A stretch of 64,000 bases of DNA from Massalongia carnosa (Eukaryota), in NCBI GenBank assembly GCA_965645245.1, contig OZ287077.1, positions 806,001 through 870,000 on the forward strand, read 5' to 3'. A program made the position numbers and the translations under genes. Positions 2,918 through 64,000 of the stretch are shown in pieces (the first letter of the stretch is position 1; each line of letters opens with the position of its first letter). Below the pieces are notes generated by a model that searched no databases, was not told where the DNA came from, and saw nothing but the letters and a program-made list of their open reading frames with translations.

Positions 2918-4022
2918 ATGGAATGCCCAATTGAGTAGGGTAGGAGTTTGTAGGATTCGTCTCGGCGACGACAGCACGTGGGACTGCTAGAGGGATGCCT
3001 TTTTGAAAACTGAGGTTCAAATTGAATAGTGAGGCCTGGGACGTCTGAAAGTATAGCTGAAACGCGTTTGATGACCATCTTCCGAGTCTCTGAATACTCT
3101 CATCCAGCATCCCGTGGTCGGCGGCGTGTTGTGCTGCTCCTTTTCTGAAGCTGTGTCCCGAGTATGCCGAGTCGTTGATGCCGACGGCTATCAGTCTCTT
3201 TTTCAGGGATGCTATGACGGAGGCTCTGGTGAATGCGGTGCCGAGACGAAAAAGCGGGGATGTAGATGGCTGAGGATCATTTCTGAAAAGACGCCGTAGT
3301 GCTGTCACGGGGCAAGTGCTCTCATTGGTCGCTGCCAGCACTATCTGAACTCCTGAGTGATTTGTGTCTGTTTTGCTTCTTTTGAGACGTAATGTCGCGT
3401 ATTGATCGTTCTCGGCGAATGAGATGTCACCTCGTGTAGGTTTCAATCTCTGAAAAGATGTCTTCTTACGATCAGCGACAGTGTAGGTGATTTCCCCGAG
3501 TCTGAGGAACCCTGCCCATGCAACTTTGAATGTCGCGTCGATGTTGAGGTCTTCGGCCGAATGAGCGGGAATACTGGTGATTTTTGTCAGTAATTCTTTT
3601 GAAATGGGTAGGCGTCTTCTTTTTGTCTGAGAAAAGATCCTTTTTCCCCCTTTCAGCATCAATTGAAGTCTCGGCCCCTCGAATGGGGTGAGGCCGTATC
3701 CTCGGTCTACATGGTATGATCTGAGGCCGGCGAGGTAGCTCGCTGCCGTCTCTGGTTTTATCTTTCCCTGCTTGGGTGTGCCGCCCCCGTATAGTCGACC
3801 GGCTAGCCATTCCTCGAGGGACTCGGTTGTTGCAGGCCACGACGTGCGTCCCGTCGTCGCGCAGAATGCCTCGTATGAGTCGATCGCCGTCCCGTACCCT
3901 TTTCTCGTGTCCGCCGAGTGTCCGTGCCAGACGAGACGTTTTACCAGGGCTGACCCTGGTGTGGAGGATAGGTAGGTGGAGGGAGGTTCATCGAATTGTA
4001 TGGGTTCTGCCAATGAGGGCAA
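2811..4022 (-). CDS. Tyrosine recombinase of the YR retrotransposon
   Basis: 403 aa with catalytic motifs FLRLGE, LKRSKTD, HSFRKGAA, LGRWSSNAFQLY. Overlaps the RT ORF by 82 nt and ends inside the terminal repeat. Confidence 0.93.
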   Translation of the reverse strand: MPSLAEPIQFDEPPSTYLSSTPGSALVKRLVWHGHSADTRKGYGTAIDSYEAFCATTGRTSWPATTESLEEWLAGRLYGGGTPKQGKIKPETAASYLAGLRSYHVDRGYGLTPFEGPRLQLMLKGGKRIFSQTKRRRLPISKELLTKITSIPAHSAEDLNIDATFKVAWAGFLRLGEITYTVADRKKTSFQRLKPTRGDISFAENDQYATLRLKRSKTDTNHSGVQIVLAATNESTCPVTALRRLFRNDPQPSTSPLFRLGTAFTRASVIASLKKRLIAVGINDSAYSGHSFRKGAAQHAADHGMLDESIQRLGRWSSNAFQLYFQTSQASLFNLNLSFQKGIPLAVPRAVVAETNPTNSYPTQLGIPLGVQVNQGIDPERRRAPPSRSSPSGTAVGHHLSDR

Positions 4023-5644
4023 AAGTTAGCCAATCTTTCATCATCAAAACGTGACAGGGCATCTGCTAGTCCATTGGAAGTGCCACTGATCCATTGACAA
4101 CGTAGTACGATGTCCCACTTTGCAGCTATGGACAGTATTTCTCGTAGAGGCGCGTTGGCCGGTCCCTTGAGGGTTAGATTCGTGAATCCTGTGTATGCTG
4201 TGTTGCTGTCGGTAAAGACAAGGATCTGTCGATGTCGCCATGTCGGCGCCCATTTCTGAAGGATTAGAAGGATAGCTTCGACTTCTCGGACGTTTATGCT
4301 CGGTGATCCTTCCTGATTGAGGACTAGGACTCGGGCCCTACATGCGTTTTTTTGATTCACGAGCTCGTTGTCTTGTTGAAAATAGCCTCCGAGACCCGTG
4401 AGGCATGCATCCGTATGCACCTTGATCGTGTCTCGTGTTGACGTCTCGAAGAAGACAATACCGTTGAAGTCCACTAGAAGTTTGTTCCACCAGATGAGAT
4501 CCTGTCTGACCCATGTGGGAATTCTTCTTTTGACCCGACGATGACTGCCCGAGGGAAATGAGGCTATAAAATTCCAGAATAATCGTAAGAAGACTCGGCC
4601 CAATTTGACTGCCTGTGCGCAGAAGCTTAGGAAGCCCGCTATTGACTGCATGTCGCCGAGGCTGATTGTCGTCTCGTTTAGTGCCTTTGTAGTGATGATT
4701 CTCGCTTTTTCCAGCTTGTCCGCTGGCAGACGAATAAGACTGTTGATGGTGTCGACCTCGAGTCCGAAGACTGTCGCTGTCGTTCCCTCGGCGTCTTTTG
4801 AGTCGTTTCTCGGGATGCCAAGAATGTCGGTGAGAATGTTGTAGGCTTTTGTTTCTTGGTGCAATCGTTCTGACGATGTCTCGGATGGGAAAATTGCAAC
4901 GAAGTCGTCTAGATAGTGATGTAATCTCCATTGTAGAAAGGATTCCAAAATCCAATGAAAGCCTTCCGCAAAAAGATTGAAGATGAACGGGGCCGTCGAC
5001 AGTCCGAACGAAAGGCATGTCTCGGTGTAGAATTCGTCATTCCATCCGAAACCCAGAAGCCATTGATGATGAGGTGCGACGGGAACGTTTCGAAAGGCGT
5101 CTTTGACGTCTCTTTTCACTATGACAGCACCTTTGCCCGCTGACAGAATCAATTGAATAATGTCGTCGAGTCTGGCGTATTGTAATTTGGATGCCTCTTC
5201 TGGAATGTTGTCGTTGACTGATGTTTGATTGGGATGAGACAGATGATGAATGCGTCGCCATCCTCCGTCATGTTTCGGGACCAAGCCGAGGGGGGAGGCC
5301 ACAAATGGCTGACTCGGGGCGGCTATTCGTCTGACTCGGCCCTTCCTGAGGTCCTCTTGGAGCTTATTCTCGATCGTTTCCGGGTCCTCATTCGCTGATG
5401 TCAGATTTTTTTCGATCCGAAGGATGTCTGTGGGGCCTTCGTATCCGATTTGTACTCCGAAACGAAGGATCATGGGCAGATGGACTCGGAGGGGGCCCGG
5501 ATACTCTTGAAGTAGAGTTGCCCATGCGGACGGTACGAGGGGAGATGGGCTGTCTTTCAAACGCTGACGAGATGCGTCTACGAGTTGAAACGAAGGGATT
5601 GTATTTGGTCTGATTGGTGCAGGTAAGCAGGGATGGGACGTCAT
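3941..5644 (-). CDS. Reverse transcriptase / RNase H
   Basis: 567 aa with SPLGLVPK, RRIHHLS, KRDVKDAFR, FGLSTAPFIF, YLDD, then RNase H motifs HTDAC, FTDS, NGLADALSR. No methyltransferase domain seen. Confidence 0.95.
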   Translation of the reverse strand: MTSHPCLPAPIRPNTIPSFQLVDASRQRLKDSPSPLVPSAWATLLQEYPGPLRVHLPMILRFGVQIGYEGPTDILRIEKNLTSANEDPETIENKLQEDLRKGRVRRIAAPSQPFVASPLGLVPKHDGGWRRIHHLSHPNQTSVNDNIPEEASKLQYARLDDIIQLILSAGKGAVIVKRDVKDAFRNVPVAPHHQWLLGFGWNDEFYTETCLSFGLSTAPFIFNLFAEGFHWILESFLQWRLHHYLDDFVAIFPSETSSERLHQETKAYNILTDILGIPRNDSKDAEGTTATVFGLEVDTINSLIRLPADKLEKARIITTKALNETTISLGDMQSIAGFLSFCAQAVKLGRVFLRLFWNFIASFPSGSHRRVKRRIPTWVRQDLIWWNKLLVDFNGIVFFETSTRDTIKVHTDACLTGLGGYFQQDNELVNQKNACRARVLVLNQEGSPSINVREVEAILLILQKWAPTWRHRQILVFTDSNTAYTGFTNLTLKGPANAPLREILSIAAKWDIVLRCQWISGTSNGLADALSRFDDERLANFCPHWQNPYNSMNLPPPTYPPHQGQPW

Positions 5645-11815: not shown

Positions 11816-13240
11816 ATGGCGCTTTCCCAAGAGCTTGACTCTGGTTTTCAGACACACAACTGCAACGAAAAGCCGCGAGACGAGAAGCGGCTGCCTGCCA
11901 CGGTGTCTTTGCACCTAACGAACTTCCTGGCTTCAAATCCCAGCATTCGGTTCATCCGTTACCAATGGGTCGATCTCTTCGGCGTCCTCCGTGTCCGTGT
12001 CCTCCCCAAGGCCCACAGCCTGTCGCTCGCCACTACAAACTCCCCCGTCACCCTTGGCCCTTTTGCCCACGCCATCCTAGTTGATGGCACCATGATGCCC
12101 GACACAAAACCTGATGGTGTAGACAGCCTGTATCCCGACTGGTCGTCGCTCGCCAAGTCGAACGGCGGCAAGGATGGTGACCATTACGCCGCAGTCATGT
12201 GCTGGGTATCGGAATACAACCGCGACTGCCCGGATTTGGGTTACCAGCGCTGCCCACGATCGGCATTGCAGCGTGCCGTCGCGTACGCTCAGGACACTTG
12301 CGGCCTAGAATTCCTGGTCGGCTTTGAGATTGAGTTCATTCTAACAAGCACAAACGCCGAGGGCCACCGGACTCCGCTGGGCGGCGACGAGGGCATCTGG
12401 ACTGCCTCCAGCACCCGCACCCCCGCCTTTGCTTACGTGGAAGAGAGCGTTGACGCTCTCACAGCAGTAGGTATCGACGTCCAGCAATTCCACTCCGAGG
12501 GCGCTGCCGGTCAGTTTGAGATCTCGACCGCGCCGCTACCGCCGCTGCAGGCCGTTGACGCTTTGATTCTCACCCACGAGACGATCAAGAATGTGCTCGC
12601 CCGGCACGGGCATCGCGCGACCATGTATCCCAAGCCTCTCGACCGCCTCCCCTCGAATGGCGCCCACATGCACGTTTCGTTCGTCGGCAGCCCGGCCCCC
12701 GTGGGGGCGGATAAGGGAGACGCATTTCTGGCCGGCCTGCTACGGCGCATCCCTGCGCTGTGCGCCTTCACCATGCCGACGCACGACTCGTACGTACGCG
12801 TAGAGCGCCTCGAGGCCGGCGAGCACGTGGGCTGGGGTTCGCAGAACCGCACGGTCCCGGTCCGCCAAGTCCGCCCATGCCACTGGGAGCTGCGGTTCGT
12901 TGACGGCACGGCAAACATGTACCTGGCGCTTGCGGTGTGCCTTACGGCCGGGGCGCTGGGCGTGCGCGACGGCGAGGCGCTGCGGTGGCGGGATTGCACG
13001 TGCGCTGAGGATGCGCGGGATCTGGAGAACGGGCCCGTGGACGCGGACGGGTCAACCCCGCTCCCGAAAAGCTTGAGAGAGGCGCTGGCGTGTCTTGCGG
13101 ACGACCCGGCCCGGTTAGGAGACGTGCTTGGGACGGCGCTGGTGGAGCGGTATTTACGGGTGAAGGCGCACGAGGAGATGCAGATGGGGAGGCTAGACCG
13201 GTTGGCGAGGAGGAGGTTGTATTTGCAAAAATTTGGGTGA
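11816..13240 (+). CDS. Glutamine synthetase-like protein (FluG C-terminal / gamma-glutamyl ligase type)
   Basis: RFIRYQWVD, GFEIEF, HSEGAAGQFEI, NGAHMHVS, WGSQNR, HWELRFVDGTANMYLA. Single exon. Confidence 0.88.
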   Translation: MALSQELDSGFQTHNCNEKPRDEKRLPATVSLHLTNFLASNPSIRFIRYQWVDLFGVLRVRVLPKAHSLSLATTNSPVTLGPFAHAILVDGTMMPDTKPDGVDSLYPDWSSLAKSNGGKDGDHYAAVMCWVSEYNRDCPDLGYQRCPRSALQRAVAYAQDTCGLEFLVGFEIEFILTSTNAEGHRTPLGGDEGIWTASSTRTPAFAYVEESVDALTAVGIDVQQFHSEGAAGQFEISTAPLPPLQAVDALILTHETIKNVLARHGHRATMYPKPLDRLPSNGAHMHVSFVGSPAPVGADKGDAFLAGLLRRIPALCAFTMPTHDSYVRVERLEAGEHVGWGSQNRTVPVRQVRPCHWELRFVDGTANMYLALAVCLTAGALGVRDGEALRWRDCTCAEDARDLENGPVDADGSTPLPKSLREALACLADDPARLGDVLGTALVERYLRVKAHEEMQMGRLDRLARRRLYLQKFG

Positions 13241-14949: not shown

Positions 14950-17523
14950 TCACTCAAAGACCGGAGCACCCCCCCCCTTCAACACCGCCCTCCTCTCATC
15001 CTCATCCACCATCCCGCCCCTCACCCCCTCCAACACCTCCCACCAGCGCACTTCCCCCGCCACCCGCACCCGCGCCGCCTCCAGCGCCTTCCGCACCTCC
15101 GCTTCCCGCACCCCCTGCACGCGCTCGAAACGGTCCATCTCGTCGCGCATCAGCTCATCGAATTCCCGCAGCGCCGCCTCCCCACGCACGATCCACTTGC
15201 GCAGGTCGCGCTCATGCTGCGCCTGCAGTTCGTGACGCTCGGCGGATTGCGCGTCCATGAGGAGGTCCAGCACGCTGGCCGTGAGGTGGCCGCGCTGCGA
15301 CTCCTGCGAGGCCCCGCCGGGGAGGGGTTGCAGGAAGACGCGGTCTTGGTCCTCGCGGTGGCGGTGCAAGGTCGCCGTGAGCGCGGTGCGATGCGTGCGG
15401 TGCAATTCCGCGAGTTTCTTCTCATTGACAGCCACGATGCCCTTGCGCTCGAGGATGATCTGACGGCTACGTTCGCGCGAAAGGTTGGTGGCGCGGAGCC
15501 CTGATTCCTTCTGCTCCAGCAGCTTCAGCTCCGCGCCGTGGCGGGCGGCCAAGAGCTCCTTCTGTTGCTGCAGCACGCGCGCGAGGGTGGCGCGAAGTTG
15601 GCCAAAGCGCGCATTGATCGCCTCCACACGCGCGTATTCTCGGCGCGTAAACTCCTCCAGCTCCTCCGCCTGGCGCATTGCTTCGAGTTCGCGCTCCTCC
15701 GCCTCGCGCTCCGCGGCCACTTGGCGTTCCGCGCGCTCCACCGCGGCGATGGCTTCACGCACCTCGGCTTCTTCGGCGTGGAGCTCGGCGTTGAAGGCCG
15801 CGAGCCGTTCGGCGATCTCGGCTTCGCGGTCGGCTTGGTCGGCCTCGGTGCACTCGCAGGTTCGCCATCGAGCGCCGCAGGTATAGCTGGAGATCGTTAG
15901 CGGGAGCCTTTCTCGCCCCGGAAAATCCCCATACCAGAATTCAGCTTTGCATTTGCACGTGATATGCCGACACCCTGTGCTCAACTCCACCATCGTCCTG
16001 CAACTATAACACCGTCGCCAGCCGGCACGCTCCGCCTGCGCCAACGTAGCGCTCAGGCTAAAATCCTGCGGGCAGTCTTGCTTGGCCGCGTGCTGCGCCC
16101 CTCGGCACGAGGAGCACATCCAAAACTTGCAGCGCGGGCATTCCAACGCCCCATTCAATCGGCGAGCTTTGCGCGTGTCGATCCATTTCGCGCATTCCGG
16201 CGATCCGCAATAGTACCGGCTTCCGACGGCGACGGCATACTCGAGGGCTTTTTCGTCATACTCGCTCATCACGGAGGCGGATAAGTGGGTTTCAAGGGTC
16301 CGCCGGGGAATTTCCTGGATGCAACACTTGGGCGGAAAAATATCCTCGCCGTGCATTGCGGTGCTGACGAGCTGCGAGAAACAGGGCCTACAGTATTGAT
16401 GAGAACATGGCAGGTTGACGGCCTTTTTGTCAGGTACGTCGTCGAAGCAACTCGTGCATTCGCGTGGCACAGCAGGCAGTTCCTCGGCACACTTGGCCCC
16501 TTTGGGTTTTCGACCGAGAAGTCTAAATAATCCCTGATTCGGTCGGACGTTGTGCTTCTGTGCATGGATCCATGAGCTCCTCGACGTTGACTCCAGGCTT
16601 TCCTGAGAGCTTGTCACCGCGCAAAGCTCGGCGGAAGTTCGGAGATTGTTCAGCGCATCGTCGCCGTTGCTGGATCCCACGCTTGCTGTCGAGTCCAGCG
16701 ATTGGCTGACCGGGCTGGAGCGGTCGCTCGACATGGAAAGAACGGGGAATTGATGAAGGTCGAGGGACCGTTGACGGTCTGGAGACCGTATCGATGCCGT
16801 TGCCGAGGTTTGCACGCTGGGACAAACCGTCCCCACCTCACTTCCCGAACTCGACATCGTCACCGTCGTCCTCACGACAATAGCCTGTGTATGGAGCTTT
16901 GACGCTCGTAAAGCCCGATGTTCGTCGTAGGATTCTTGTACAATGTTCCGTATCTCTTCGGGCTCCTGACTGTCGATGTATCCCAATTCCTCCGGTATCT
17001 CGGTTTCTTGCCATGATTCATTTTCAAAGTCTTCGGTACTTTGAGATTCGGCTCGAACAAGCGTCGGTAGCGGTCCATCGATGGTTGCGCTGCCCACCTG
17101 AATGACCAGGTCTGGAAGATTCATGTGAACGCGACGGGCAGGCAGCTTGCCTGGAGTTGCCAGCGGGCGAGGCATCTCGTGTCCGCTGCCCAGCGGGATC
17201 ATTCCCCCATTTCTCTGGTACCCACAGCGCCGAGCGGCGTCGACGTCGAAAGGGCCAAAAATTGAAGGCTGCGCATCCAGGTCGACCTGCGAGGTCTTGA
17301 ATCTGAGAGGGCTAGCATCCAACAGAATCGGCACGGGATTGGCAGCAATTTTCATCATCGCTGTTGCACATAGACCAGGATGAGAAGCGAAACACGACGA
17401 CAATGTTGCAATCACCGAGCAGAGGAAATCGAACGATAGAAGACAAAAAGCAACGACGGTACGCGGCAAGTTGCAGGAAACAGATCCGCTCAGGGAGGGT
17501 GCCTGTGTGTTCCCGCTCGACAT
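14950..17523 (-). CDS. RBR (RING-IBR-RING) E3 ubiquitin ligase-like protein
   Basis: CTSC..CSHQYCRPC..PPKCC, YCGSPEC..CPRC..CSSC..H..C, RRCYSC..GCRHITCKC, C-terminal coiled coil. A 48-nt in-frame intron at about 15887-15934 restores EFCYTC. True start uncertain (possible upstream exon near 17800). Confidence 0.85.
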   Translation of the reverse strand: MSSGNTQAPSLSGSVSCNLPRTVVAFCLLSFDFLCSVIATLSSCFASHPGLCATAMMKIAANPVPILLDASPLRFKTSQVDLDAQPSIFGPFDVDAARRCGYQRNGGMIPLGSGHEMPRPLATPGKLPARRVHMNLPDLVIQVGSATIDGPLPTLVRAESQSTEDFENESWQETEIPEELGYIDSQEPEEIRNIVQESYDEHRALRASKLHTQAIVVRTTVTMSSSGSEVGTVCPSVQTSATASIRSPDRQRSLDLHQFPVLSMSSDRSSPVSQSLDSTASVGSSNGDDALNNLRTSAELCAVTSSQESLESTSRSSWIHAQKHNVRPNQGLFRLLGRKPKGAKCAEELPAVPRECTSCFDDVPDKKAVNLPCSHQYCRPCFSQLVSTAMHGEDIFPPKCCIQEIPRRTLETHLSASVMSEYDEKALEYAVAVGSRYYCGSPECAKWIDTRKARRLNGALECPRCKFWMCSSCRGAQHAAKQDCPQDFSLSATLAQAERAGWRRCYSCRTMVELSTGCRHITCKCKAEFWYGDFPGRERLPLTISSYTCGARWRTCECTEADQADREAEIAERLAAFNAELHAEEAEVREAIAAVERAERQVAAEREAEERELEAMRQAEELEEFTRREYARVEAINARFGQLRATLARVLQQQKELLAARHGAELKLLEQKESGLRATNLSRERSRQIILERKGIVAVNEKKLAELHRTHRTALTATLHRHREDQDRVFLQPLPGGASQESQRGHLTASVLDLLMDAQSAERHELQAQHERDLRKWIVRGEAALREFDELMRDEMDRFERVQGVREAEVRKALEAARVRVAGEVRWWEVLEGVRGGMVDEDERRAVLKGGGAPVFE

Positions 17524-27660: not shown

Positions 27661-29550
27661 GCTGTAAGTGAGATCGTGATTGTTAATGGATATCATTTTG
27701 TAGACGATGACTTGTTGTTAAAATGGAGAAAAATCGAAAAGGGTTCAGAGAGAGACAAAAGAACGCCACGAATGCTCGACAAAGTACAACGACATTCTGA
27801 AATGGAAAAGTACAGATACCTTCAACGAACTCCATATCTCTTGAGTCAATGCACTTAGCATTTTGGTTCTATGAATGGCTAAATGGCTAAATGGCTGTCC
27901 AGCCTGGAGCACTTATACTTAGCAGGTGGCTAGCTGTGGGAAAAAATAGAGTACTTAAAGCGCTTCTTTGCAAACAATAGTCTCGTGCCCCTCCATGCGC
28001 CCCCTTTTGCTTGAGGTGTTTAACAATCTTCGCTCCTATCATTTTTTTAAAAACAACAACAACAACAATGAGACATTTATAGCCTCAATTGACATTCATT
28101 TAGATCAACTACAGGCCCAGACCAGACAACGCCTGTGTCGAAATGGTCAAAAGAGTTTCATCACAAATGCATGCAACAAAGTAGCCAATAAACTTCGAGG
28201 TCGGGCAGGACGCAAGAGGGCCCCAGTCATCACTCCAGGAACGCTGAAATACGCCTGGGCCAAGAGAATCACATCGGAGGCACATAACCCTCCAACACCG
28301 ACACCAAATCCACCATGGGCCGAATCCCCCCCGAATCTCGTCCGAGAAATAGGGGAGGCACGCGCCGCTCATAACAAAATAACTGCTCAAATAAAAAAAC
28401 TACACACATTTGCATGGCAGGCCTCGTGGAGATCATATCAGGAACGCATACCCGTTCCCACCCCGGCACAATCAGGTTCACTCTCCAAAAAACGCATCAA
28501 ATTGCACGAAACTCTAGCCAAAGCGGAGAGCGCGCTAGCCATTCAGATACGCTCAGAAAAGATAGGCCTAGCCGCCTTCCTACATAGACACCGAGTCCCA
28601 GACGTCTCGTCCCCGAACTGCTCATGTGGCTGGCACAAACAGACTGCAAAACATGATCACATGTTTTGCAAACTCAACGACAACAGAAAAACTCTGCTAA
28701 ATACGATAGGCATAAACAACTATCGATTAATCACTGAATCATCTAAAGCAATGAAATTAGTCACAAAGTGGCTAATAAAGACAGGTTTGTTCTCACAATT
28801 TTCGCTGACAGCACAGCATCTATACTGCTAACAGTAGGCATGCTTTGTTTCATTTTTCATACTTGTCTTAGGTCAAAGGTTTTTTCATGGAGCACACGGC
28901 TAGGACCCGGAGGGTCCTCGGCCGGACACAGGATTGCATGGTTTTTCTTGCCTCAGTACTTCGTACCTCAGACCTGCCTTGCCCTCGCCACAGCTAAGCA
29001 TTTTCGGATTAGTATATAATTAGTCAGAAGCTAAGTCAATTTAGTTAAATGTTGCCTCAGTACCTCAGACGTGCGTGGCTCAATGAGCCGGCTAAGCCCC
29101 TCCGGGTTAGCCTATTTTCGCTAAGCCCCTTCGGGTTAGCGTCGCTGCTGACTAACATCAGTGCGATAGCACGTCTGAGCGCAAAACTCAAAATTACGGC
29201 CAGATCCGCGTAATAAAAATTTTAGCAGTGCAACCATTCCTTTTATGGATTTAATACAATGATTAGGGTCGTATTAGTTTACCAGAGACTGTATTTTATA
29301 CCAAAAACGCACCTCTCAAGATGGATGACTCGATAATCATGTGTTATAACTACTGTCAGGCTAAGAAAAGCGATGTGAAAGTCGATTAAGTGATAAATTG
29401 TTCGCTTTCGCTCAATTTTGAGGTTGATGAACTGATTATTTTCATGTGGCGCGATTACATTGAGTTACAAAGATCATGATGATATGAATAACGACGGCCA
29501 ATCAATGGTATTGTATGATTTATCTAGATTGAAGCTATCTGACGAAAGCC

Positions 29551-32229
29551 ATGGCTCTTGTCGGGGGCCCCTCCTCGCCACTTACCGACCTACGGACAAG
29601 TCCCTTGACTCCCGCCGGTGCGCTCAAGCGGCCCCACCCATCGCCGTCAGGCAGTAATGATAGCTCACCCTCTTCCTCCTCCCCTCCTGCCTTACCTGAA
29701 AAAAATGGAGGCGCGAAACGCCACCGCCGGCGCATATCAGATTACGACAAGCTGGTTGAGGTGCTTAAATTTCTGAGCTCTCTAAATTGGTCGGTAAAAG
29801 ATTTTTTATCAACACTTTGTAAGAATCGAGCCCGTCATAGTATGCGAAAGGCGCAAGGCCAGCTCTTCGATTTTGTCTATGTCGATATTGTGCGGCAAGA
29901 AGACTTTTCAAGCCTCATTGGGCCTGGTAGAATATCCACTATCCTTCGCGAGAGAGGATGGGTTTGGGCCGCGGATGTGCTTCGTGAAGAAATCAAAGCT
30001 TTGGCAGAGCACGCAGCCTTTGGCCCTTTCCAGCCGCCCTCTGCGACAGTCGAGTTTGGGACCTTGGAGGCTATTAAACTTGCTGCATCTGCCGCCAAGC
30101 AGTTGGCGCCACGATGGCTTGAGCTAATTGATAGTGTTTGTCGCGAGGCTCGCCCGCAGGAACCTCTCGATGTGACGTTGGATTCTCCCAGCGGCCGGCA
30201 CACCGTTATATTGGCAATGCTTTGTCACAAATTGCGACCAAATAAGGCGACCAATATTCAGTCCGTCTTAGGCCTTTATATTTATCAAGGTGGGGCGAGG
30301 CGGCGAGTTCTAGATACACTCTGTCATTTTGACCTGACGATGTCATATACTACCCTGCAGCGGCGCATGTTGTCCTTGATTAAGGAGGCCGAACGAAAGG
30401 TTCAGATGCTAGGACAAGGCTCAAACATGATCTTGACATACGATAACTTTGACTTCGCAGAAGGTAAACGAGGAGAGCGCACGGGGGATAATAGAGACGT
30501 CAGATCAATCACTACCGCTCTAATTTTCCAGGGGCAAGGATTCGATGCCGGCGCTTTGAGGCAGGATATGTGGCGCCCCGCCACGCATCTTTTATCAGCT
30601 GAAAGAATTGCGCGAAAGCTGGAGACTGGTGATCTCGAGATGCAGGTGAGTTCAATACAGGACGAGGTGTATATACCGCGCTCAATCGCTAATGCACCGC
30701 GTACCTAGATTCGTCTTCATCATCTAGAGTCAGCGATTCGAGCGCTTTATGGCCCAGAGATCGGCGACGTTCAACTTCCTTGGTCGACTGCAATGCCCGT
30801 GCTGAATAAGATGAAAAAATACAAGACCAATTACATTCCTATCAAACCAGTCATGAAGGATGAGAGCACAACATCTAATAATATTCAAATATTGGAGGAT
30901 ATATTTGTGCGACAGTTCAAGTTCAAGGAGGATGACTCGACGTTTGCGAGCGTCATTCGGCTTATCTATGGTGACCTCAAGACATGGTCGAGAATGCAAT
31001 CTGTCAAGGAATTACGTCGTGGGATATCGGAGCAATCTTTCGATCGGTTCGACTGGATTTTACCGGGATTAGGGTTATGGCATCTTCGCTTTAACATGCT
31101 GCAGCTTATTCATAAAATACATTGGGGAGAGGCCCAGCCGGTTGATCCTTCGACTCTTCAATATGCCGCCGATCGGTGGGGCCGCGCTCGTGTCGTGCAG
31201 CCGAACGATTTCCAGGCCTTAGAGGATCTGATCATTCAGAGCTATCAAGCTAGAATCGTTGGGACGTGGATTAGGTTTTTACGAAAGGATGGATATGCTC
31301 CGCAGCGAATCGAAGCAACTATTTCGTGGCTCACAGCGCAGACTTGCGGGCAGGATGGCACCTGGATGAATATGTTGGGCAGGATATCTCGCAAACTTCA
31401 CGCGGAATTACCCTCAACGTCAATAGATATGCTTCCTCCAACGCTTGATCAACAATTTCAGAATCATCAGAACTTCTGTGATCACGTTGAATCGTATCTA
31501 ACACTTCGATACGCAATCAAATATGCGGATATTGGACTACTTCGTCACGCATTGCGCCACGCAACGGTGATCTTTCAGGCAAGCGTAGCTGGCACCCCGA
31601 AATATGCGCAAGCTCTTCTATACACCCTTCATGCGATTGATTCTTCCGCAGCGACCATAAGGCTACAGGAAAGTATTTTAATGAATAGTCTTGTCAATTT
31701 ACGCGGTGACGAAGAGTCGAGTTTTGAGACTGATCGGCTTTTAGAGATACTAAACAATAACCTCAAGACGTTCCAGCACGAGCGATCTTATTTTTCAAAG
31801 TATAGTGACACCTTGCTCGAGAACTGGGCACTCAACGGTCCATATCTTATGAAGCTCAAAGAAATCGTTGAGTTTTACTTTGGAAGAGTCAACTCTTCAA
31901 GGCATCCAGCAAAATCGGCCGCAGAGGATGTGTGGGGCATGGCTACGGCACTAGCGCATAAATCACTCTATAAAAGAAGCTATGATCGATTTTCAACTAA
32001 TCCAACAGCTAATCTTTATGTTGAGGGATTGAAGAAACTTGGAGAAAATGTATTAAAATACAATCAGCAGTATCTTTCCGAAGAAATTTCAAAAGAAATT
32101 TCAACAGACGACCTTGAGGGTAAGTATGAAGCCGAGCCCGATTTTGTCAATGAAACAAAGCAGGTCCCCGACAGCCCTGTCATTTCAATGGCCCGTCTCG
32201 AGATATCCGGCGGTATGTTTTTTGATTAA
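29551..32229 (+). CDS. Putative Academ-type transposase (DUF6589-like), about 871 aa
   Basis: Intron 30646-30708 (GTGAG..GCTAAT..TAG) joins the 385- and 478-aa ORFs in frame. Motifs LTYDNFD, YGDLKT, GLGLWH, TDRLLEILNNNLK as candidate catalytic acidic residues. Confidence 0.78.
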
Positions 32230-32288
32230 ATCATCGATACCACGAGATAGCCTAGTCATGTAAATCCGCGCCGCGCGGCTTTACAGAG

Positions 32289-34464
32289 TCAGAGGTAGCG
32301 GACGGGGCACTTTCTTTCTTGTCTAGATCGTGTCGGAGGAAGGGCCATGGGTACATTCAGCGACAACGCTTCCATAGGATCTCGAGGCGCTTTTTTGGTC
32401 TTTGATGCCTTCATCGATGATTTAAGAGCATCAACATTGTCAACAACGAGCGCCGCATCGGAGATATTGTGATTAGGCGCAGGATTCTCGCCCGATGGCT
32501 CCGTGCTCTCGCTTTCCTTCGAGACTTTCTTCTTGACCGCATTTCGCTTTTTAAAAACCTTTCTCGACATATATCCTTGTTTGATCATCCAGTTTTTCCT
32601 CCGTTCCTCAAATTCAATACTGGCGGAGTTGCATGTTAGGCTGGGTAATCGTTTTCTCTTTATGTCGTTGTGTCGTTTCCATTCCTCGAACATGTCTCCC
32701 TCGTCTAATCTCATTGCTTGACCCCGCTTTAAAATTTCTAAAAGCTCGGCGCCGTAGGGCCTAATACCAGTCCATGTGTTACCAATCCATCGCCGCATGG
32801 TGGGCTCGTCCACAATCTGATCCGCCCAAGTGGTCAAAGAATTCAGTACCTCATCGGGCATTATCAATGATGGGAAGTATCGCATATGTGAATTTGGGAA
32901 CTTTTCCTGCGCCTTGGCCTCCCTCCATTCTCGAAGTTTAAGGGTGAACCAAGGCCGCCTAGACGAGTCACGCTCGGCCGTTCTATTTAACATCTCATTG
33001 GCGGCTGTTGATGTCTGAAAACTTGGATCGCAAATTGAACAGCAAGGTTGCGGCTTAACATAGGCCGACGTTGGATACACTTTATCATTGAAGAAATTCA
33101 AGCCAATACCTCGAACGCAACCATCTGAAGGCACATTGATTATCTCCCAAAGACCCGGTGGCATATCTCGTCGCCGATCAGCATCCTTTTGATTGATGCG
33201 GCGTTTACTGGCCTTGGATTCAATCTCGATTCCCGCGTCATATCCGTCCTGTTCGTCCATTTTTGATCCGCTTCTTGGACCCATGCACCAAGAAGGATGC
33301 AAAAGAGTAAAATGCGCCTGTCCTCGACCGCAACGCAAAGCACGACCTAAACGTTGGTATAGCTTCGCCATTGACGAGGGTAGCAGCCATTGCGTAACTC
33401 TCATAACGTCTGGATTATCAATACCAAGCCCGTATGCATCCGTTGCGATCAGGATTCGAGGAAATTTACATTGATTCGAGGGCATTTCGAAGCGAGCCGC
33501 AATCCTTTCTTTGTCTTGGGTGGCCATGTCGGAAAAGAAAGGCGCGACCCAACTAGCAGCCTCAATTGGATAGGACAATTGATTCATCCATACTTTCATT
33601 AGCGCACACGCCTTTTTGATAGATGAAATTGAATCCATGAAGATAATCGTTTTCGGAATATCAAAAGGACTCTCAGCCCGTGTTGGTAAAAGATGTTGAA
33701 GATCGATCATGCTGTTCATAGGCCGCTGTAGACTGCTTGTCTGTATGTATATCTCTGGACGATCAAGCGCTGTTTGAATAACAGTACTTTCGTTATCAAA
33801 GCCACAGCGATCTTTAACGCTCTCTAGGGTTCTTGGATCCAGCGTTGCAGACGCACCCAGAAAAGGAATACCATCTGGTAATCGTGTACGAAGCACACCG
33901 AGATTGAAGTATTCGGGCCGGAAATCTCGCCATTCGGATACAAGATGCATCTCATCAAGAGCTAAAAGACATAAATTCAAGAAGAAACTTGGATGCCTCA
34001 GAACCTCCTGATTAAACAGCTTTGACGTCGCTATCTCTGGGCTAGTAAAAACTATTCATATTAACGAGTAAGTTTTTATATTTATCTCAATCATAATTTG
34101 AATACACACCATGCGTATAATTGTTTTCACGAATTAACTTTAAATTAGAAGAATTATTACTATCACCGTCCAACACGAAAGGCTTGCATCCCTCGATAAC
34201 GCTCAATTTCTTGCACTGTTGAGCTTCTAAGGTCTTGAGAGGCATGATAATTAAAGCGATCTTAAGACAAGAGAACATTAATGGCATAGCTTGAAAGATA
34301 ATACTCTTTCCAAATCCAGTCTTGGCGATAAATATCAGATCCTTTTGATCTTGTGCTAAAGTCATGATAGCGTCAACTTGCTCATTCTTTGGATAAAAGC
34401 CGAATTTACTTAAAATCACGGTCGTCACCTGCTCGCGAGTTATCGACGCTATAGGATCGTCCAT
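32289..34464 (-). CDS. RecQ-like superfamily 2 helicase
   Basis: AKTGFGKS (motif I), IIMPLKTL, TSPE, DEMH, FRPEY, SAT, ATDAYGLGID, QRLGRALR, Cys cluster (CVR..CCSIC), HRDC-like tail. Intron 34052-34109. Confidence 0.92.
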
Positions 34465-35585
34465 TTCGATGTGTTCGCGAGCGATATTCGACGATTCGCG
34501 AGTTGGATTCTTAGCCCGCAAAACGCACATCAAGCAAGTTCATCACATTCAACGATTTTAGGCTTTCGAAAACAACGCTCGGAGGATCAGATTAATGATC
34601 AGAAGCGCCGACAATGAAAAACTGGAGCTAGTGACCCGTTGAGTCTGCTGTGGTGGTGTCGAAATTTCGAGTCAAAGTCGAGTCCTCGTCGCGAGATCGA
34701 TATTGCGACTCAATTTTGCATCGATATGTAATTAAAATATTGATTAATCGATAGAATGTATATCAAAGCATCATTTCTATTATTACATAATTTATGAAAT
34801 GTCGTTGCGCGTTGTTGATTCCGCCGTCAACTTGATTCTTGATGATTTTTGAGGTTAAGCCAAAAATTTGTATGAGCGCGCACCAAAATAAGCCGGATCT
34901 GACAAAAATACAGAGTTTTGCGCTCAGACGTGCCGCCCGTAGCATGCGTAGTCAGCTAAAGGGCCGCTAACCCGAAGGGGCTTAGCGAAAATAGGCTAAC
35001 CTGGAGGGGCTTAGCCGGCTCATAGAGCCACGCACGTCTGAGGTACTGAGGCAAGTTAAATGTTTAACTGTTTTAGGATAAGATTCTATTTAGCTTACTA
35101 CGCATGCTTCGGTGTAAGCACAGCGAACCTAGTACGCACGGTCTAACTTTAAAGGGTTAGGCACATAGGCTAAATAAGTTAGCGCCGAGCTAACCGAAAG
35201 AGGTTAGTGCAGATGAAGGCTGTGCCACAACACGTCTGAGGTACTGAGGCAAGGTTTTTCTTCCTCAAAAGGTTTTCCATGTACTATAAAACTAGATAGA
35301 CTCGCCCGCATGGGCCGGCCTTCGGCCGGTACCACATCGGAATAAGAATCATCATCATCATCATCAACAACAACAACAACAACAACAGGCAATTAACATA
35401 AGAAGATTAAATATGAAAACGACGACAGGATAAGTTTTCGACATCAAAAATCAAAGGGGTTTAAAAGTAGAAATATATAATGAGAGTTGGAAGCTTTGTA
35501 GAATATGGGAGGAAATTACTGATATCTTAAGTCTGTAACGAACCGCCTAGCAAAGAGTATATTCACACAACTCATCATCTATGTA

Positions 35586-37454
35586 TACTATCCGTGCCGC
35601 GTAGCTGGCACTCAGTCCTGCGGAGTGGTGCCGAACACCCATATAACCGAAAATTTAAATATTTTGACCAACCACCTTGATAAATTATCATCAACATCAT
35701 CATGTCTTCCACTTATCAGGAAATTGAGGCTCGAATTCTACTAGCTATTGATCATCTACGAAAAAATCCTACAGCTAAAAGAGCTAAAATTGCGCGTCAA
35801 TTCGACGTGCCTTCGCAGCTACTTCGTTTTCGACTTCAAGGTCATCCCCCCGCATCTGAGGTACGAGGACTGCATGGACGTCGATTATCATCTGATCAAG
35901 ACTTGGCCTTAGTCTTATATATTCAACGAATGATCGCATTAGGCCTTCATCCTCGTCTTCGAATGATAGAAGCAGCTGCCAATAAGTTGCTAATGCAGGG
36001 CTGGACTGATTCGACCCCACCACAACCATTGAGTCATGCATGGGCCACGCGATGGATGAGTCGTCATTCTGAATTTCAGAAGATTAAACGCAAGCCTCTT
36101 GCAGCCGTACGAAAGAATGCGGAGGACCCGGTCGTTTTACGAGCTCATTTTAATCAGTACAGTCAGATAGTGCATGAGCATGGCATATGTGATGAGGACA
36201 AATGGAATTTTGATGAGACGGGCTTTTGATTGGGCATCGCACGATTAGATTGGGTCATTACTTTAGCAGATGACAAGCAGAAAAAGGTGTTTTCTAAAGA
36301 TCCAGACAATCGTGAAAGTTTGACAGCCATCGAATGTATAAATGGCGCTGGGGGCAGCATTCCTTCATTTCTCATACTCAGTGGATTGATGATTCAAGGT
36401 TCATGGGCCGAAAATGATTTGAATGATGGAGTCATGCTTTCGACAGCCGAGACTGGTTATTCAAATGACTGGTTATCTATAGAATGGCTGAAGCATTTCG
36501 ATAAGCACTCCTCAAAGAGTCAAAAAGGGGCGTATCGACTGCTAATGATGGATGGTTATGGGTGGCATCATACTATTGAATTTATTGAGTACTGCAATGA
36601 GGCCAAAATTATCCCCTTCGGCCTGCCACCTCATACGACTCATCTGTTGCAACCATTGGACGTCGTAGTTTTTCAGCCCCTGAAACATTGGCATGCTGAG
36701 GCGGTTAAGGATGCAATGGCCCATGGGGACGAGACGTTTAATAAGGTGGAATTTTTGAATGCTTTCAACTCGTTTCGAAATAAAGCATTCAAAATTTCGA
36801 CTATAAAATCAGCATGGAAGGCCGTGGGCATCATTCCTTTCGATCCGTCCGTTGTCTTCGATAAATTGGGATCAGGGGCCTCGTACATTGAGGCCGATCC
36901 TTTGGCTGATATTTATGATCAAACACCTGATCATTCGGATAATGATCTTTCGGACCCGCAAACTCCGAAGAATTTGAGTGCTTTGCTTCAAGCTTCGTAT
37001 GAAATTGAGGCTTAATATCCGAAATTCGTTAAAGGCGCTTTAGCATGTGCTCGAGAAAGCGAGCTGTTATCGGATCAATTAGCACTGACTAAAGCAGCCG
37101 AAAACGCTCGAAAGGTGAGGGTCAATCAGAGCAAGCATTACGTTCAAAAAGGAGGAGTTATTCAGGTGGATCAATGCAGAAGAATGACTTTCGAGCGAAA
37201 GGAGGAAGAGGAGCAATTGGAGTCGGATCGTCAGAATAAGGCTGATCGTCAACAACGAAAGCGATAGGGGCCGATATTTAGGGAGTTGAAACGGAAGATA
37301 CCATATTATATAGTGAATGGCTCGTATGGTTTATCAAAACGTTGATAACCTGATGTTTTTGGGCCTGTAGGTGAAATAGTGATATTTTCGGTTATATGGG
37401 TGTTTCGGCACTCAGTCCACAGGACTGAGTGCCAGCTACGCGGCACGGATACTG
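35586..37454 (+). mobile_element. Fot1/pogo-type (Tc1/mariner) DNA transposon
   Basis: About 70-bp imperfect TIRs (TATCCGTGCCGCGTAGCTGGCACTCAGTCCTG...), TA on both flanks, 1.87 kb long. Confidence 0.92.
35702..37267 (+). pseudogene. Fot1-like DDE transposase with premature stops
   Basis: HTH region, WNFDETGF, LMMDGYGWH, HLLQPLDV, KFVKG, QKGGV. In-frame TGA at 36227-36229 and TAA at 37013-37015. Confidence 0.9.
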
Positions 37455-62760: not shown

Positions 62761-64000
62761 TCATACGTGAATAATTAATCTGTCCTGACTTGGAGATATT
62801 AACTCCCTTCCGCTGACAGCTCCATGTTTAATCAGTAAATGCTCGACTTCACGGTACCTAAATTCCCTCGCGAAATCTAATGGCGTCCACCTCCTGTCCC
62901 AGCTGCTAGAATTGATCTGTGCATTCCTAGCCAACAATAGGCCAACAACAGTAATCTTGCCGTTGTGTGCGGCTATAGCTAATGGACTCATGCCCGACCA
63001 ACCCACACTCTCTATGTCTGCACCAGCGTTCAACAATAGCAGCACCACCGATTCATGGCCCTCACGAGATGCCTCATGGAGAGGGGATTCTCCATCAGGA
63101 GAGATGCAGGTTTTCGGGTCTGCACCATGTTCCAACAGAAGCTGTACGATTGTGTCGTTTCCCTGCTTGGCTGCTGTTATGAGGGCCGTCCATTCAACAG
63201 TGTTGCCTACCCTTCCTTCAACGAGCGCCCCCTGTTCCAACAGTATCGCAGCAACCAACTTACGGTTTCCCTTAATGGCCATGACCAACGGAATTTCATC
63301 TTCAGGGACGCAGGGATTTAGCGGCGCGACTATATGTCGTTTTCTTGGCTTCTTGATTCCCAATATGTTCCTAGCATCAACTTCCACATCAAACCCTTGT
63401 GCGAGGTATAAGACGACTAAAGCATTATTATGCCGAATGGCCCATGGAAGTGGCCCTGAACGTTTCCAGTCTGTATGAGTCATGGAGTAACCTCGGAGAA
63501 TAAGCGCTTCCACCACAAGCTGCTTATCCGCTTCAGTAAGCCTACACTTAAGTTCTTGTAGCTGCGACTTAACCATCTCAACTTTATTCGTTGGGGTTCG
63601 AGCAACAGAGACGCTCCTATCGCGAACAACGGAATCGGCATTGTTGAATCTGCTGTTTGTACCTTCAGATTAGCACTTTATCCTTGTTGCTGCCAAATGA
63701 GAGCTTTACATGTCATCCTTAAGCATGCATCCGACTCTTCGTAATTTCAGTGAACTAAGAACCTTAGAGGGTATCATATCTATATAGGCACCGGCTTCTA
63801 TCGAATCCCCTTTGCCCTCACATATTCTCGATAGCAATTCGAGTGACTCGTAATAGGAGATATGCTCCTTTCCGAGCGTACGCCGACGTCCAATCATAGC
63901 TTTTTGACAGTATCTCTCTGCAGCGTCACAATCTCCTTTTTCTAGTTGAAACTCGGCGAGAAAATGAGAAGCCGAGAGGATGCGCTCTGCATCTTCAGTT
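62761..64000 (-). CDS. TPR-like plus ankyrin-repeat protein, 3' part (5' end outside the window)
   Basis: Ankyrin repeats TALITAA, SPLHEAS, SPLAIAA, TPLDFA. Upstream exon AERYCQKAMIGRRRTLGKEH is TPR-like. Intron near 63664-63709. Confidence 0.8.

Follow-up and report, generated by a model that had tools for sequence, protein, structure and literature searches.

A helicase-bearing DNA transposon of probable AcademH type, with two intact genes and signs of recent movement, in Massalongia carnosa

A 64,000-nt stretch of the Massalongia carnosa genome (assembly GCA_965645245.1, contig OZ287077.1, positions 806,001-870,000 of the forward strand), here called the window and numbered from its first letter, carries a complete 6003-bp DNA transposon with two intact genes at 29052-35054. 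We read it, with a probability of roughly 0.8, as an autonomous, recently mobile cut-and-paste Academ transposon of the helicase-bearing (AcademH-type) branch, residing in a lichen-type ascomycete. AcademH is the helicase-encoding Academ lineage, reportedly described by Kojima in 2020 in Mobile DNA 11:15. An earlier note on this DNA, made from its letters alone, had proposed a complete two-gene element bounded by terminal inverted repeats (TIRs) at 29052-35054, and the TIRs, the target-site duplication (TSD) and both genes bear that proposal out.

Element ends and target-site duplications

The TIR arms lie at 29052-29146 (plus strand) and 34960-35054 (minus strand). The inverted ends, which the earlier note took to be near-perfect over about 90 bp, are real and measure 95 nt with 96% complementarity, the four mismatches falling at TIR positions 31, 53, 91 and 93. 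The left arm begins TTGCCTCAGTACCTCAGACGTG and contains two copies of the mini-palindrome GCTAAGCCCCTYCGGGTTAGC. With up to three mismatches allowed, the terminal 19-mer occurs at four sites in the window, where shuffled sequence leads one to expect 0.01 (none of 100 shuffles reaches four), and these four sites are both ends of the inner element and both ends of an outer one, 28948-35252, that encloses it. The outer element, which measures 294 bp once the insert and one TSD copy are subtracted, is non-autonomous and resembles a miniature inverted-repeat transposable element (MITE); its left part occupies 28948-29043 on the plus strand, with the terminal motif at 28948 carrying three mismatches, and its right part 35063-35252 on the same strand, ending in ...CACGTCTGAGGTACTGAGGCAA. 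By blastn its similarity to the inner element is confined to tips of about 22-31 nt.

An exact GTTAAATG stands directly outside both inner ends (29044-29051 and 35055-35062), and an exact GGTTTTTC directly outside both outer ends (28940-28947 and 35253-35260), so that with ends of the form TTGCC...GGCAA the TSD is 8 bp in two of two insertions. The ends themselves are fixed by other copies in public sequencing runs: at least part of the stretch is contained in 13 of 21 listed runs from 11 studies, seven of which contain at least half of its words, and contigs were compared from four of them (X1, X2, X4 and X5), labelled with four organism codes. Because these contigs diverge from the window exactly before 29052 (two in X2, one in X4) and exactly after GGCAA at 35252 (four in X1, four in X2), the TT...AA lies inside the element; the inner right end is fixed by an empty-site contig.

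A related family of elements of about 11 kb, found in metagenomic contigs, supplies the TSD census outside the window, no copy of the other related clade (JAABU/soil) having both of its flanks. All five of its copies with both flanks have 9-bp TSDs, exact at L028 (GCGTGTTAA), L031 (TATATACAC) and L026 (CTACTTGCC) and with one C/T change apiece at L018 and L024. The repeats at L028 and L031 can be neither extended nor shifted, as the adjoining bases differ. The tips of these relatives, TTACC...GGTAA, are homologous to those of the window element, and the same boundaries give exactly 8 bp in the window.

AcademH TSDs are given as 9-10 bp and those of AcademX as 3-4 bp in the accessible part of PMC10045372. 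Were the ends set here one base too far out, the element would be an ordinary AcademH transposon with 9-10-bp TSDs, running TGCC...GGCA between copies of AGTTAAATGT or of the 9-bp GTTAAATGT. Such a shift would treat the T that follows the 8-bp repeat at both insertions as duplicated target rather than as the first base of the element, and the A before the inner repeat likewise rather than as its last; the joints of the empty sites leave 9-11 letters ambiguous, and the sister family does make 9 bp. The 10-bp version, which the earlier note had allowed for and which the inner site permits when taken by itself, fails at the outer element (TGGTTTTTCT versus AGGTTTTTCT). Three contigs part from the window exactly before T 29052 and eight exactly after 35252, and homologous tips that flank unshiftable 9-bp TSDs in L028 and L031 give 8 here. 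We therefore regard the shifted reading as improbable, and the 8-bp TSD that the earlier note recorded at both nested insertions stands, fixed by the other copies, the empty-site contig and the tips of the relatives; as a rule for the family it is provisional.

The inner element's target is a small palindrome, AGTTAAA-TG-TTTAACT, of which the TSD spans one arm and the spacer, which may be chance.

The transposase gene and its likeness to Academ

The first gene, ORF1, runs on the plus strand. Exon 1 (29551-30645, 365 codons) carries the motif Y297-D298-N299-F300-D301, a 63-nt intron of the form GTGAGT...CTAAT...TAG occupies 30646-30708, and exon 2 (30709-32229) adds 506 codons and the stop. The spliced product has 871 aa, in line with the length given in the earlier note, and a single terminal stop. 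The stretch encoded by the intron is a gap in the homologues P0005, P0007 and P0011, and GT..AG introns stand at the same two positions, one in the transposase and one in the helicase gene, in the metagenomic loci L004 and L007. Many database gene models of relatives hold just one exon's worth of transposase.

Exon 2 corresponds to Pfam DUF6589 (E 2.3e-62), the family that the earlier note expected a profile search of the spliced ORF1 to return, and exon 1 has no Pfam family. The match takes in residues 395-785 of the read-through protein, starting ahead of the second Asp and ending past the Glu, so that the first catalytic-type motif, YDNFD of exon 1, falls outside the Pfam model. The exon 2 motifs, in spliced numbering, are G-D454, W481..P484..G487-L-W-H490 and D707-x3-E711..K718. 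Conservation in a 59-sequence alignment is close to complete at D298 (42/43), N299 (43/43), D475 (48/49), H511 (48/49), D728 (46/47), E732 (47/47) and N735 (47/47), the 48/49, 48/49 and 47/47 being the counts for the D, H and E of the exon 2 motifs. Even at E<=10 the only Pfam match of ORF1 is DUF6589, with no XPG, hAT or KDZ domain, and all 31 long relatives have DUF6589 and no other Pfam domain; among 7999 candidates no longer fused form, for instance with XPG, was found at E<=0.001, which is weak evidence.

The link to Academ is anchored on the text of the 'RNase_H_Academ' profile hidden Markov model (HMM; 465 positions, 44 sequences) in the supplement of PMC5751038, of which positions 1-40, 143-245 and 424-465 (185 of 465) were compared by eye and without a score. 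Over these positions an Academ-type RNase-H-like DDE core can be followed in ORF1: f-D-N-w-D of the HMM corresponds to Y-D-N-F-D, y-v-p to Y-I-P, t-g-d-q to G-D-L (with Q in the majority of the family), W-l-v-P-f-l-G-f-F-H to W-I-L-P-G-L-G-L-W-H with identical 3/3/3 spacing, and D-e-a-l-E...K to D-R-L-L-E...K. The blocks come in the same order, spaced D-156-D-257-E here and D-188-D-263-E in the HMM. Conserved blocks of a published RNase-H profile, matched by eye, thus support the Academ-like transposase that the earlier note saw in ORF1.

Kolobok has to be weighed as well, since KolobokH elements encode a RecQ helicase and are known only from fungi, and one rhodophyte Kolobok has its helicase on the complementary strand (PMC9587614, accessible part). 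The same source gives Kolobok TTAA TSDs, 5'-RR..YY-3' termini and, in the interval from the second D to the E, a C/DxxH motif; the window element has GTTAAATG and GGTTTTTC as TSDs, 5'-TT...AA-3' termini and G-L-W-H at the corresponding place. Three residues ahead of the conserved His, 30 of 48 relatives have G, 10 have A and 5 have Q. A KolobokH element is accordingly a highly improbable identification, its likeness to the window element being that of a fungal DNA transposon with a RecQ-type helicase. Among the relatives, the best scores with the Pfam DUF6589 model belong to Mortierellomycotina, for which Academ and Kolobok were the only superfamilies then without a Pfam model (PMC5751038), and because the Kolobok features are absent here, elimination too supports the Academ assignment. 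DUF6589 is likely, judging from its motifs, the C-terminal two-thirds of the Academ transposase core.

DUF6589 transposases with a helicase could instead form a superfamily of their own, still unnamed, whose likeness to Academ is limited to a few short motifs. No searchable paper ties DUF6589 or PF20231 to Academ, the accessible parts of the supplements of PMC10799480 mention neither these nor Academ, and a literature search on Academ in lichens found no link. The comparison by eye extends over 185 of the 465 HMM positions, the conserved P9 of the HMM has no counterpart, and the 8-bp TSD fits neither AcademX nor AcademH as described in the accessible part of PMC10045372. Four separate blocks nevertheless match in the same order, among them the unusual DNxD and an identically spaced W..P..G.FH, and the D-D-E distances are similar to those of the HMM. 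The two-gene architecture and the 9-bp TSDs of the sister clade fit AcademH as cited, and so does the host range (Ascomycota, Basidiomycota, Mucoromycota and arthropod clusters). A superfamily apart is on balance quite unlikely. The earlier note's ascription of AcademH to basidiomycetes and animals proves too narrow: the lineage is on record in Basidiomycota, Ascomycota and Mucoromycota (PMC10799480, accessible part, citing Kojima 2020).

A RecQ-like helicase paired with the transposase

The second gene is convergent to the first and intact. Exon 1 (34530-34110, minus strand) gives a DEAD-domain match at E 4.2e-7 and a recQ_fam match at E 1.3e-7, a 58-nt phase-1 intron (34109-34052, GTGTGT...AATAG) follows, whose removal restores ...YTH-V-FTSPE..., and exon 2 (34051-32289, minus strand) encodes the DEMH box, the SEWRDFRPEY loop, SAT, Helicase_C and QRLGRALR, together with a Cys cluster that is conserved and a C-terminal region specific to the family. 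The spliced protein has 727 aa, with DEAD and Helicase_C domains in Pfam. Position and phase of the intron are shared with L004 and L007; the helicase gene of L010 is intronless. The SF2 core motif set of the RecQ family is present, as AKTGFGKS at 69 (residues 69-76), LDEMH at 172, SEWRDFRPEY at 179 and QRLGRALR at 373, which we take to be Walker A, DExH, the aromatic-rich loop after DExH and motif VI.

Sequence matches in the PDB are to RecQ-family proteins in 37 of 40 cases, with a best E of 8.9e-17 and with RecQ, WRN, RECQL5, RECQ1, BLM and RECQ4 as the top matches; the NCBIfam model recQ_fam (TIGR00614) is matched at E 1.6e-27, over profile positions 125-322 of 470 only, that is, the motor core. 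These matches bear out the RecQ-like identity that the earlier note gave to the convergent, intact gene. The Cys cluster, C...CC..C (C311, C336, C337 and C340 of exon 2), is conserved in the helicase family and hints at a zinc site.

A RecQ-related SF2 helicase beside the transposase is what AcademH would lead one to expect, and the pairing recurs. The metagenome scan comprises 39 loci. In the closer group, with transposases 30-35% identical to that of the window, all 8 loci that reach 1 kb or more past the transposase have a convergent helicase after it, six further loci being too short to judge; in the 11-kb group (23-27% identical) 8 of 25 loci have a helicase-like match on the opposite strand, 6.5-8 kb downstream, and the remaining loci are truncated or too decayed to judge. 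The identities drop together, transposases of 33-35% going with helicases of 29-31% and those of 23-27% with 22-26%. Two transposase and two helicase matches on contigs of equal sizes (5685 and 10167) also hint at linkage.

These data bear on whether the helicase is a captured host RecQ-like gene, carried as a passenger without a part in transposition. A helicase activity of its product and an interaction with the transposase are putative, the outer MITE moved with no helicase gene of its own, though one could have been supplied in trans, and helicase domains are often fused to, or captured near, fungal transposable elements (PMC10799480, accessible part). Against a passenger stand the convergent pairing in three clades whose transposases are only 23-35% identical, the in-step divergence of the two genes, the retained position of the helicase intron, and a helicase open reading frame that is intact in active-looking copies. 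The helicases moreover form a family of their own, 25 specific relatives scoring at E<=8e-73 before a drop to bacterial RecQ at 4e-17, and both the family-specific C-terminal region and the Cys cluster are conserved. The helicase is thus more readily seen as a fixed co-factor, and we give the passenger reading little credence.

Tips and subterminal palindromes

A tip of about 22 bp, TTRCCTCAG-(3-4 nt)-CTCAGAC, is common to three clades. A match to the terminal 19-mer in one Acidobacteria metagenome-assembled contig was set aside as chance, since nothing else in that contig resembles the element.

Inside the tip, each end holds a long imperfect palindrome that starts at the second CTCAG and closes 50-115 nt further in. 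The left palindrome (29064-29179, plus strand) encloses three small hairpins, its outer arm at 29064-29074 (CTCAGACGTGC) pairing with 29169-29179; it folds as DNA at -35.8 kcal/mol (z = -5.1). The right one (34923-35042, minus strand), in which 35042-35032 pairs with 34933-34923, folds at -34.0 kcal/mol (z = -3.9). In both, 0 of 200 shuffles fold as well and 0 of 100 equal the 11-bp stem. Ends of relatives give fold z-scores of -8.2, -4.3, -8.6, -2.9 and -1.8. Among 15 ends tested, which are not all independent because certain of them come in pairs from a single element or share a family, 10 carry a stem, anchored at nt 12-20 and 10 bp or longer, that 0-2 of 100 shuffles equal, and the arm sequences vary between families, which amounts to covariation. 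The five stemless ends belong to miniature or degraded copies, including the outer element of the window.

An alternative to plain cut-and-paste is helicase-gated DDE transposition, in which the helicase of the element would have to extrude or unwind the ends to hairpin or cruciform DNA before the transposase acts. It is suggested because three deep clades keep a free tip of about 12 nt, a covarying palindrome (10/15 ends) and a RecQ-like helicase. The palindrome-free outer miniature moved all the same, which argues against a strict requirement for the palindrome, and we consider such a departure from plain cut-and-paste unlikely.

Several relatives show ends that abut one another. At L003:4590-4612 a right end is followed by 7 bp and then by the left end of a different element, and at L017:18013-18045 a right end by 8 bp and then an inverted end; at L026:8225-8260 and L027:8463-8500 a left end is joined to an inverted end from which the last 8 nt are missing, and L026:19383-19400 is a 17-nt partial duplication of a right end. 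Junctions of this kind, with ends 7-8 bp apart, could be traces of helicase-gated intermediates. That the window element is itself nested in a relative is consistent with such a tendency to land in or next to kin. L003 was also considered as a circular contig and rejected, its ends being without overlap.

In the JAABU family three separate copies (L004:1073-1103, L006:9126-9161 and L007:5045-5082) have in common a conserved 23-nt block, TCACGTGRCAGTANTTTTTTNTG, which stands 5-8 variable bases outside the TTACC tip and is inverted between one side and the other; it is absent from a fourth copy (L011/L013). The block may point to a palindromic repeat as preferred target, or it may be an outer shell of the element.

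Recent mobility

The element moved recently, because copies at least 99.9% identical, empty sites for both insertions and copies with other flanks are all found in the public contigs; the earlier note's suggestion that it was probably recently active agrees with this. Copies in X1, X2, X4 and X5 differ by 1-3 positions over the 3.5-5.5 kb listed per run. The outer site is empty, with a single TSD copy, in contigs of X1 and X4 that join 28939/28940 to 35253/35254. Contigs of X1 and X2 have the outer element minus the inner, joining 29042 to 35054 and skipping 6011 nt, which equals 6003 + 8. Other flanks are met at 29052 and at 35252. The 90%-identity cluster of the helicase has 43 members on Mb-scale contigs, many of them truncated, and one exact sequence occurs on 10 contigs.

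Between the window and X1, X2 and X4, the 248-nt left flank has four shared differences and the 6-kb element only two. This gives a weak hint, from a flank that is itself repetitive, that the element may have spread more recently than the hosts diverged. Recent horizontal spread among lichen fungi may be considered because copies at least 99.9% identical occur in runs with four organism codes; separately from the question of the helicase, we hold it to be a doubtful proposition.

One X1 contig joins the left TIR (to 29138) to the right TIR (from 34967) through 32 unrelated letters, which makes it a MITE-like internal-deletion derivative of the inner element of about 200 bp. Other X1 contigs are about 92% identical to parts of the helicase gene and point to a second, diverged subfamily.

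Relatives and a mutated sister family

A word-index search returned 11 transposase relatives at 29-63% identity, the three named ones being the lichen-forming fungi Teloschistes, Icmadophila and Xanthocarpia, and a full profile search returned 2912 representatives at E<=1e-3, 329 of them at E<=1e-30. In a FastTree phylogeny of 123 rows the window sequence falls in a 39-row clade with the lichen relatives (local support 99), apart from the soil/JAABU clade, the clade of the 11-kb family and Mortierellomycotina; the distinct sublineage that the earlier note had proposed is thus recovered as a clade of its own. Protein-based scans of assembled genome contigs and of viral contigs found no relative. 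Neighbours in the ESM Atlas, which serve as leads only, are DUF6589 clusters in Arthropoda, Basidiomycota and Mucoromycota, together with unnamed N-terminal clusters.

The 11-kb family (L015-L039; for example L018:8868-20105) has no open reading frame of at least 200 aa within its elements and a GC content of 0.35-0.40. Its copies differ by 2058 transitions versus 104 transversions, with a CpA-to-TpA bias and TpA/ApT of 1.4-1.5, a pattern that has the signature of repeat-induced point mutation (RIP). Because of this signature its host, too, is probably an ascomycete. The window element has no sign of RIP (TpA/ApT 0.64).

Comparison with known systems

The likeness to AcademH, as far as the descriptions in the accessible parts of the citing papers go (PMC10045372, PMC10799480), lies in a TIR element with a DDE-type Academ transposase and a separate SF2/RecQ-like helicase, at low copy number in fungi including Ascomycota, and in the 9-bp TSDs of the sister clade, which fit the cited 9-10 bp; the difference lies in the 8-bp TSD of the window family. 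Academ as a whole is recorded at low copy number in most fungal taxa (PMC5751038). AcademX shares the transposase core motifs, judged from the accessible part of the same published profile, and differs in an XPG nuclease fused to the transposase, found neither in the open reading frames of the element nor in the 31 long relatives, and in its shorter TSD.

Among eukaryotic transposons with a self-encoded helicase, Helitrons and Helentrons also have hairpin-forming subterminal DNA, as the window element does. Helitrons fuse an HUH/Rep nuclease to a Pif1-type SF1 helicase and have neither TIRs nor TSDs, whereas the window element has both, along with DDE-type motifs and an SF2 RecQ-like helicase. 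We know of no Zisupton/KDZ or hAT element described with a RecQ-like helicase partner. These two groups share the 8-bp TSD (PMC12730594, accessible part) and differ in that ORF1 has no hAT or KDZ Pfam match at E<=10 and no C/DxxH.

Proposed mechanism and weight of the evidence

In the mechanism that we favour, the transposase, through D298, D454 and E711 (spliced numbering), would recognise the TTGCCTCAG and CTCAGAC tip motifs, excise the element and insert it at target cuts staggered by 8 bp, or by 9 bp in the sister clade; it would also mobilise short derivatives that retain only the tips. The helicase would act as a fixed co-factor rather than a passenger and, as a best guess, would open or extrude the palindromic DNA inside each tip, or unwind an end intermediate, so that the transposase could assemble on the opened ends.

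Some results pull the other way from an autonomous AcademH-type element. The 8-bp TSD departs from the 9-10 bp of AcademH and is a figure from two insertions, both at one locus, where a T follows the TSD each time and the site, taken by itself, could also be read as 9 or 10 bp. The link to Academ is an unscored one, made by eye on 185 of the 465 HMM positions in the available text, and the P9 without a counterpart in ORF1 lies where the HMM has about 41% deletions. A profile search of solved structures with ORF1 gave 0 matches at E<=10. Splicing and expression are argued from homology, no RNA run being among the 21 listed. The outer miniature has no palindrome and was mobilised nonetheless. 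Finally, the second gene is RecQ-like by its sequence and not a canonical RecQ, because it reaches 96.4 bits with TIGR00614 where the curated RecQ cut-off is 219.8, matches the motor core only, and has no RecQ_Zn_bind, RQC or HRDC in Pfam at E<=10.

Significance

Our literature search turned up no AcademH or KolobokH element tested at the bench. For the role of the helicase in such elements the present copy offers an unusually clean starting point, with two intact genes, supported introns, exact ends and signs of very recent movement, and with a natural miniature partner, free of the palindrome, for comparison. The conserved tip motif TTRCCTCAG...CTCAGAC could be used for finding whole elements, and the apparent change of TSD length from clade to clade, 8 or 9 bp with the tips unaltered, bears on how the stagger of the target cut evolves. 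Pfam DUF6589 likely acquires an Academ name, with the first catalytic Asp outside the Pfam model. Since AcademH is already on record in Ascomycota in the accessible part of PMC10799480 (citing Kojima 2020), the ascomycete host is not new; what is new, provisionally, is an AcademH-type lineage in a clade of its own with 8-bp TSDs.

Surroundings of the element

Scans of 28000-36500 against Rfam and for tandem repeats gave no matches. Just left of the outer element, 27995-28831 holds a 278-aa open reading frame with no Pfam family, which may be the tail of a retroelement; the very high contig depth of X1 and X2 over this region makes it a probable part of another repeat. A compound microsatellite, (CAT)n then (CAA)n, occupies 35335-35394, about 80 bp past the right end of the outer element. 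Elsewhere the window encodes an LTR-retrotransposon reverse transcriptase/RNase H (3941-5644), a glutamine synthetase (11816-13240), an IBR-domain protein of RBR type (14950-17523) and an ankyrin-repeat protein (62761-63576), and the remainder looks like ordinary fungal chromosome with scattered repeats.

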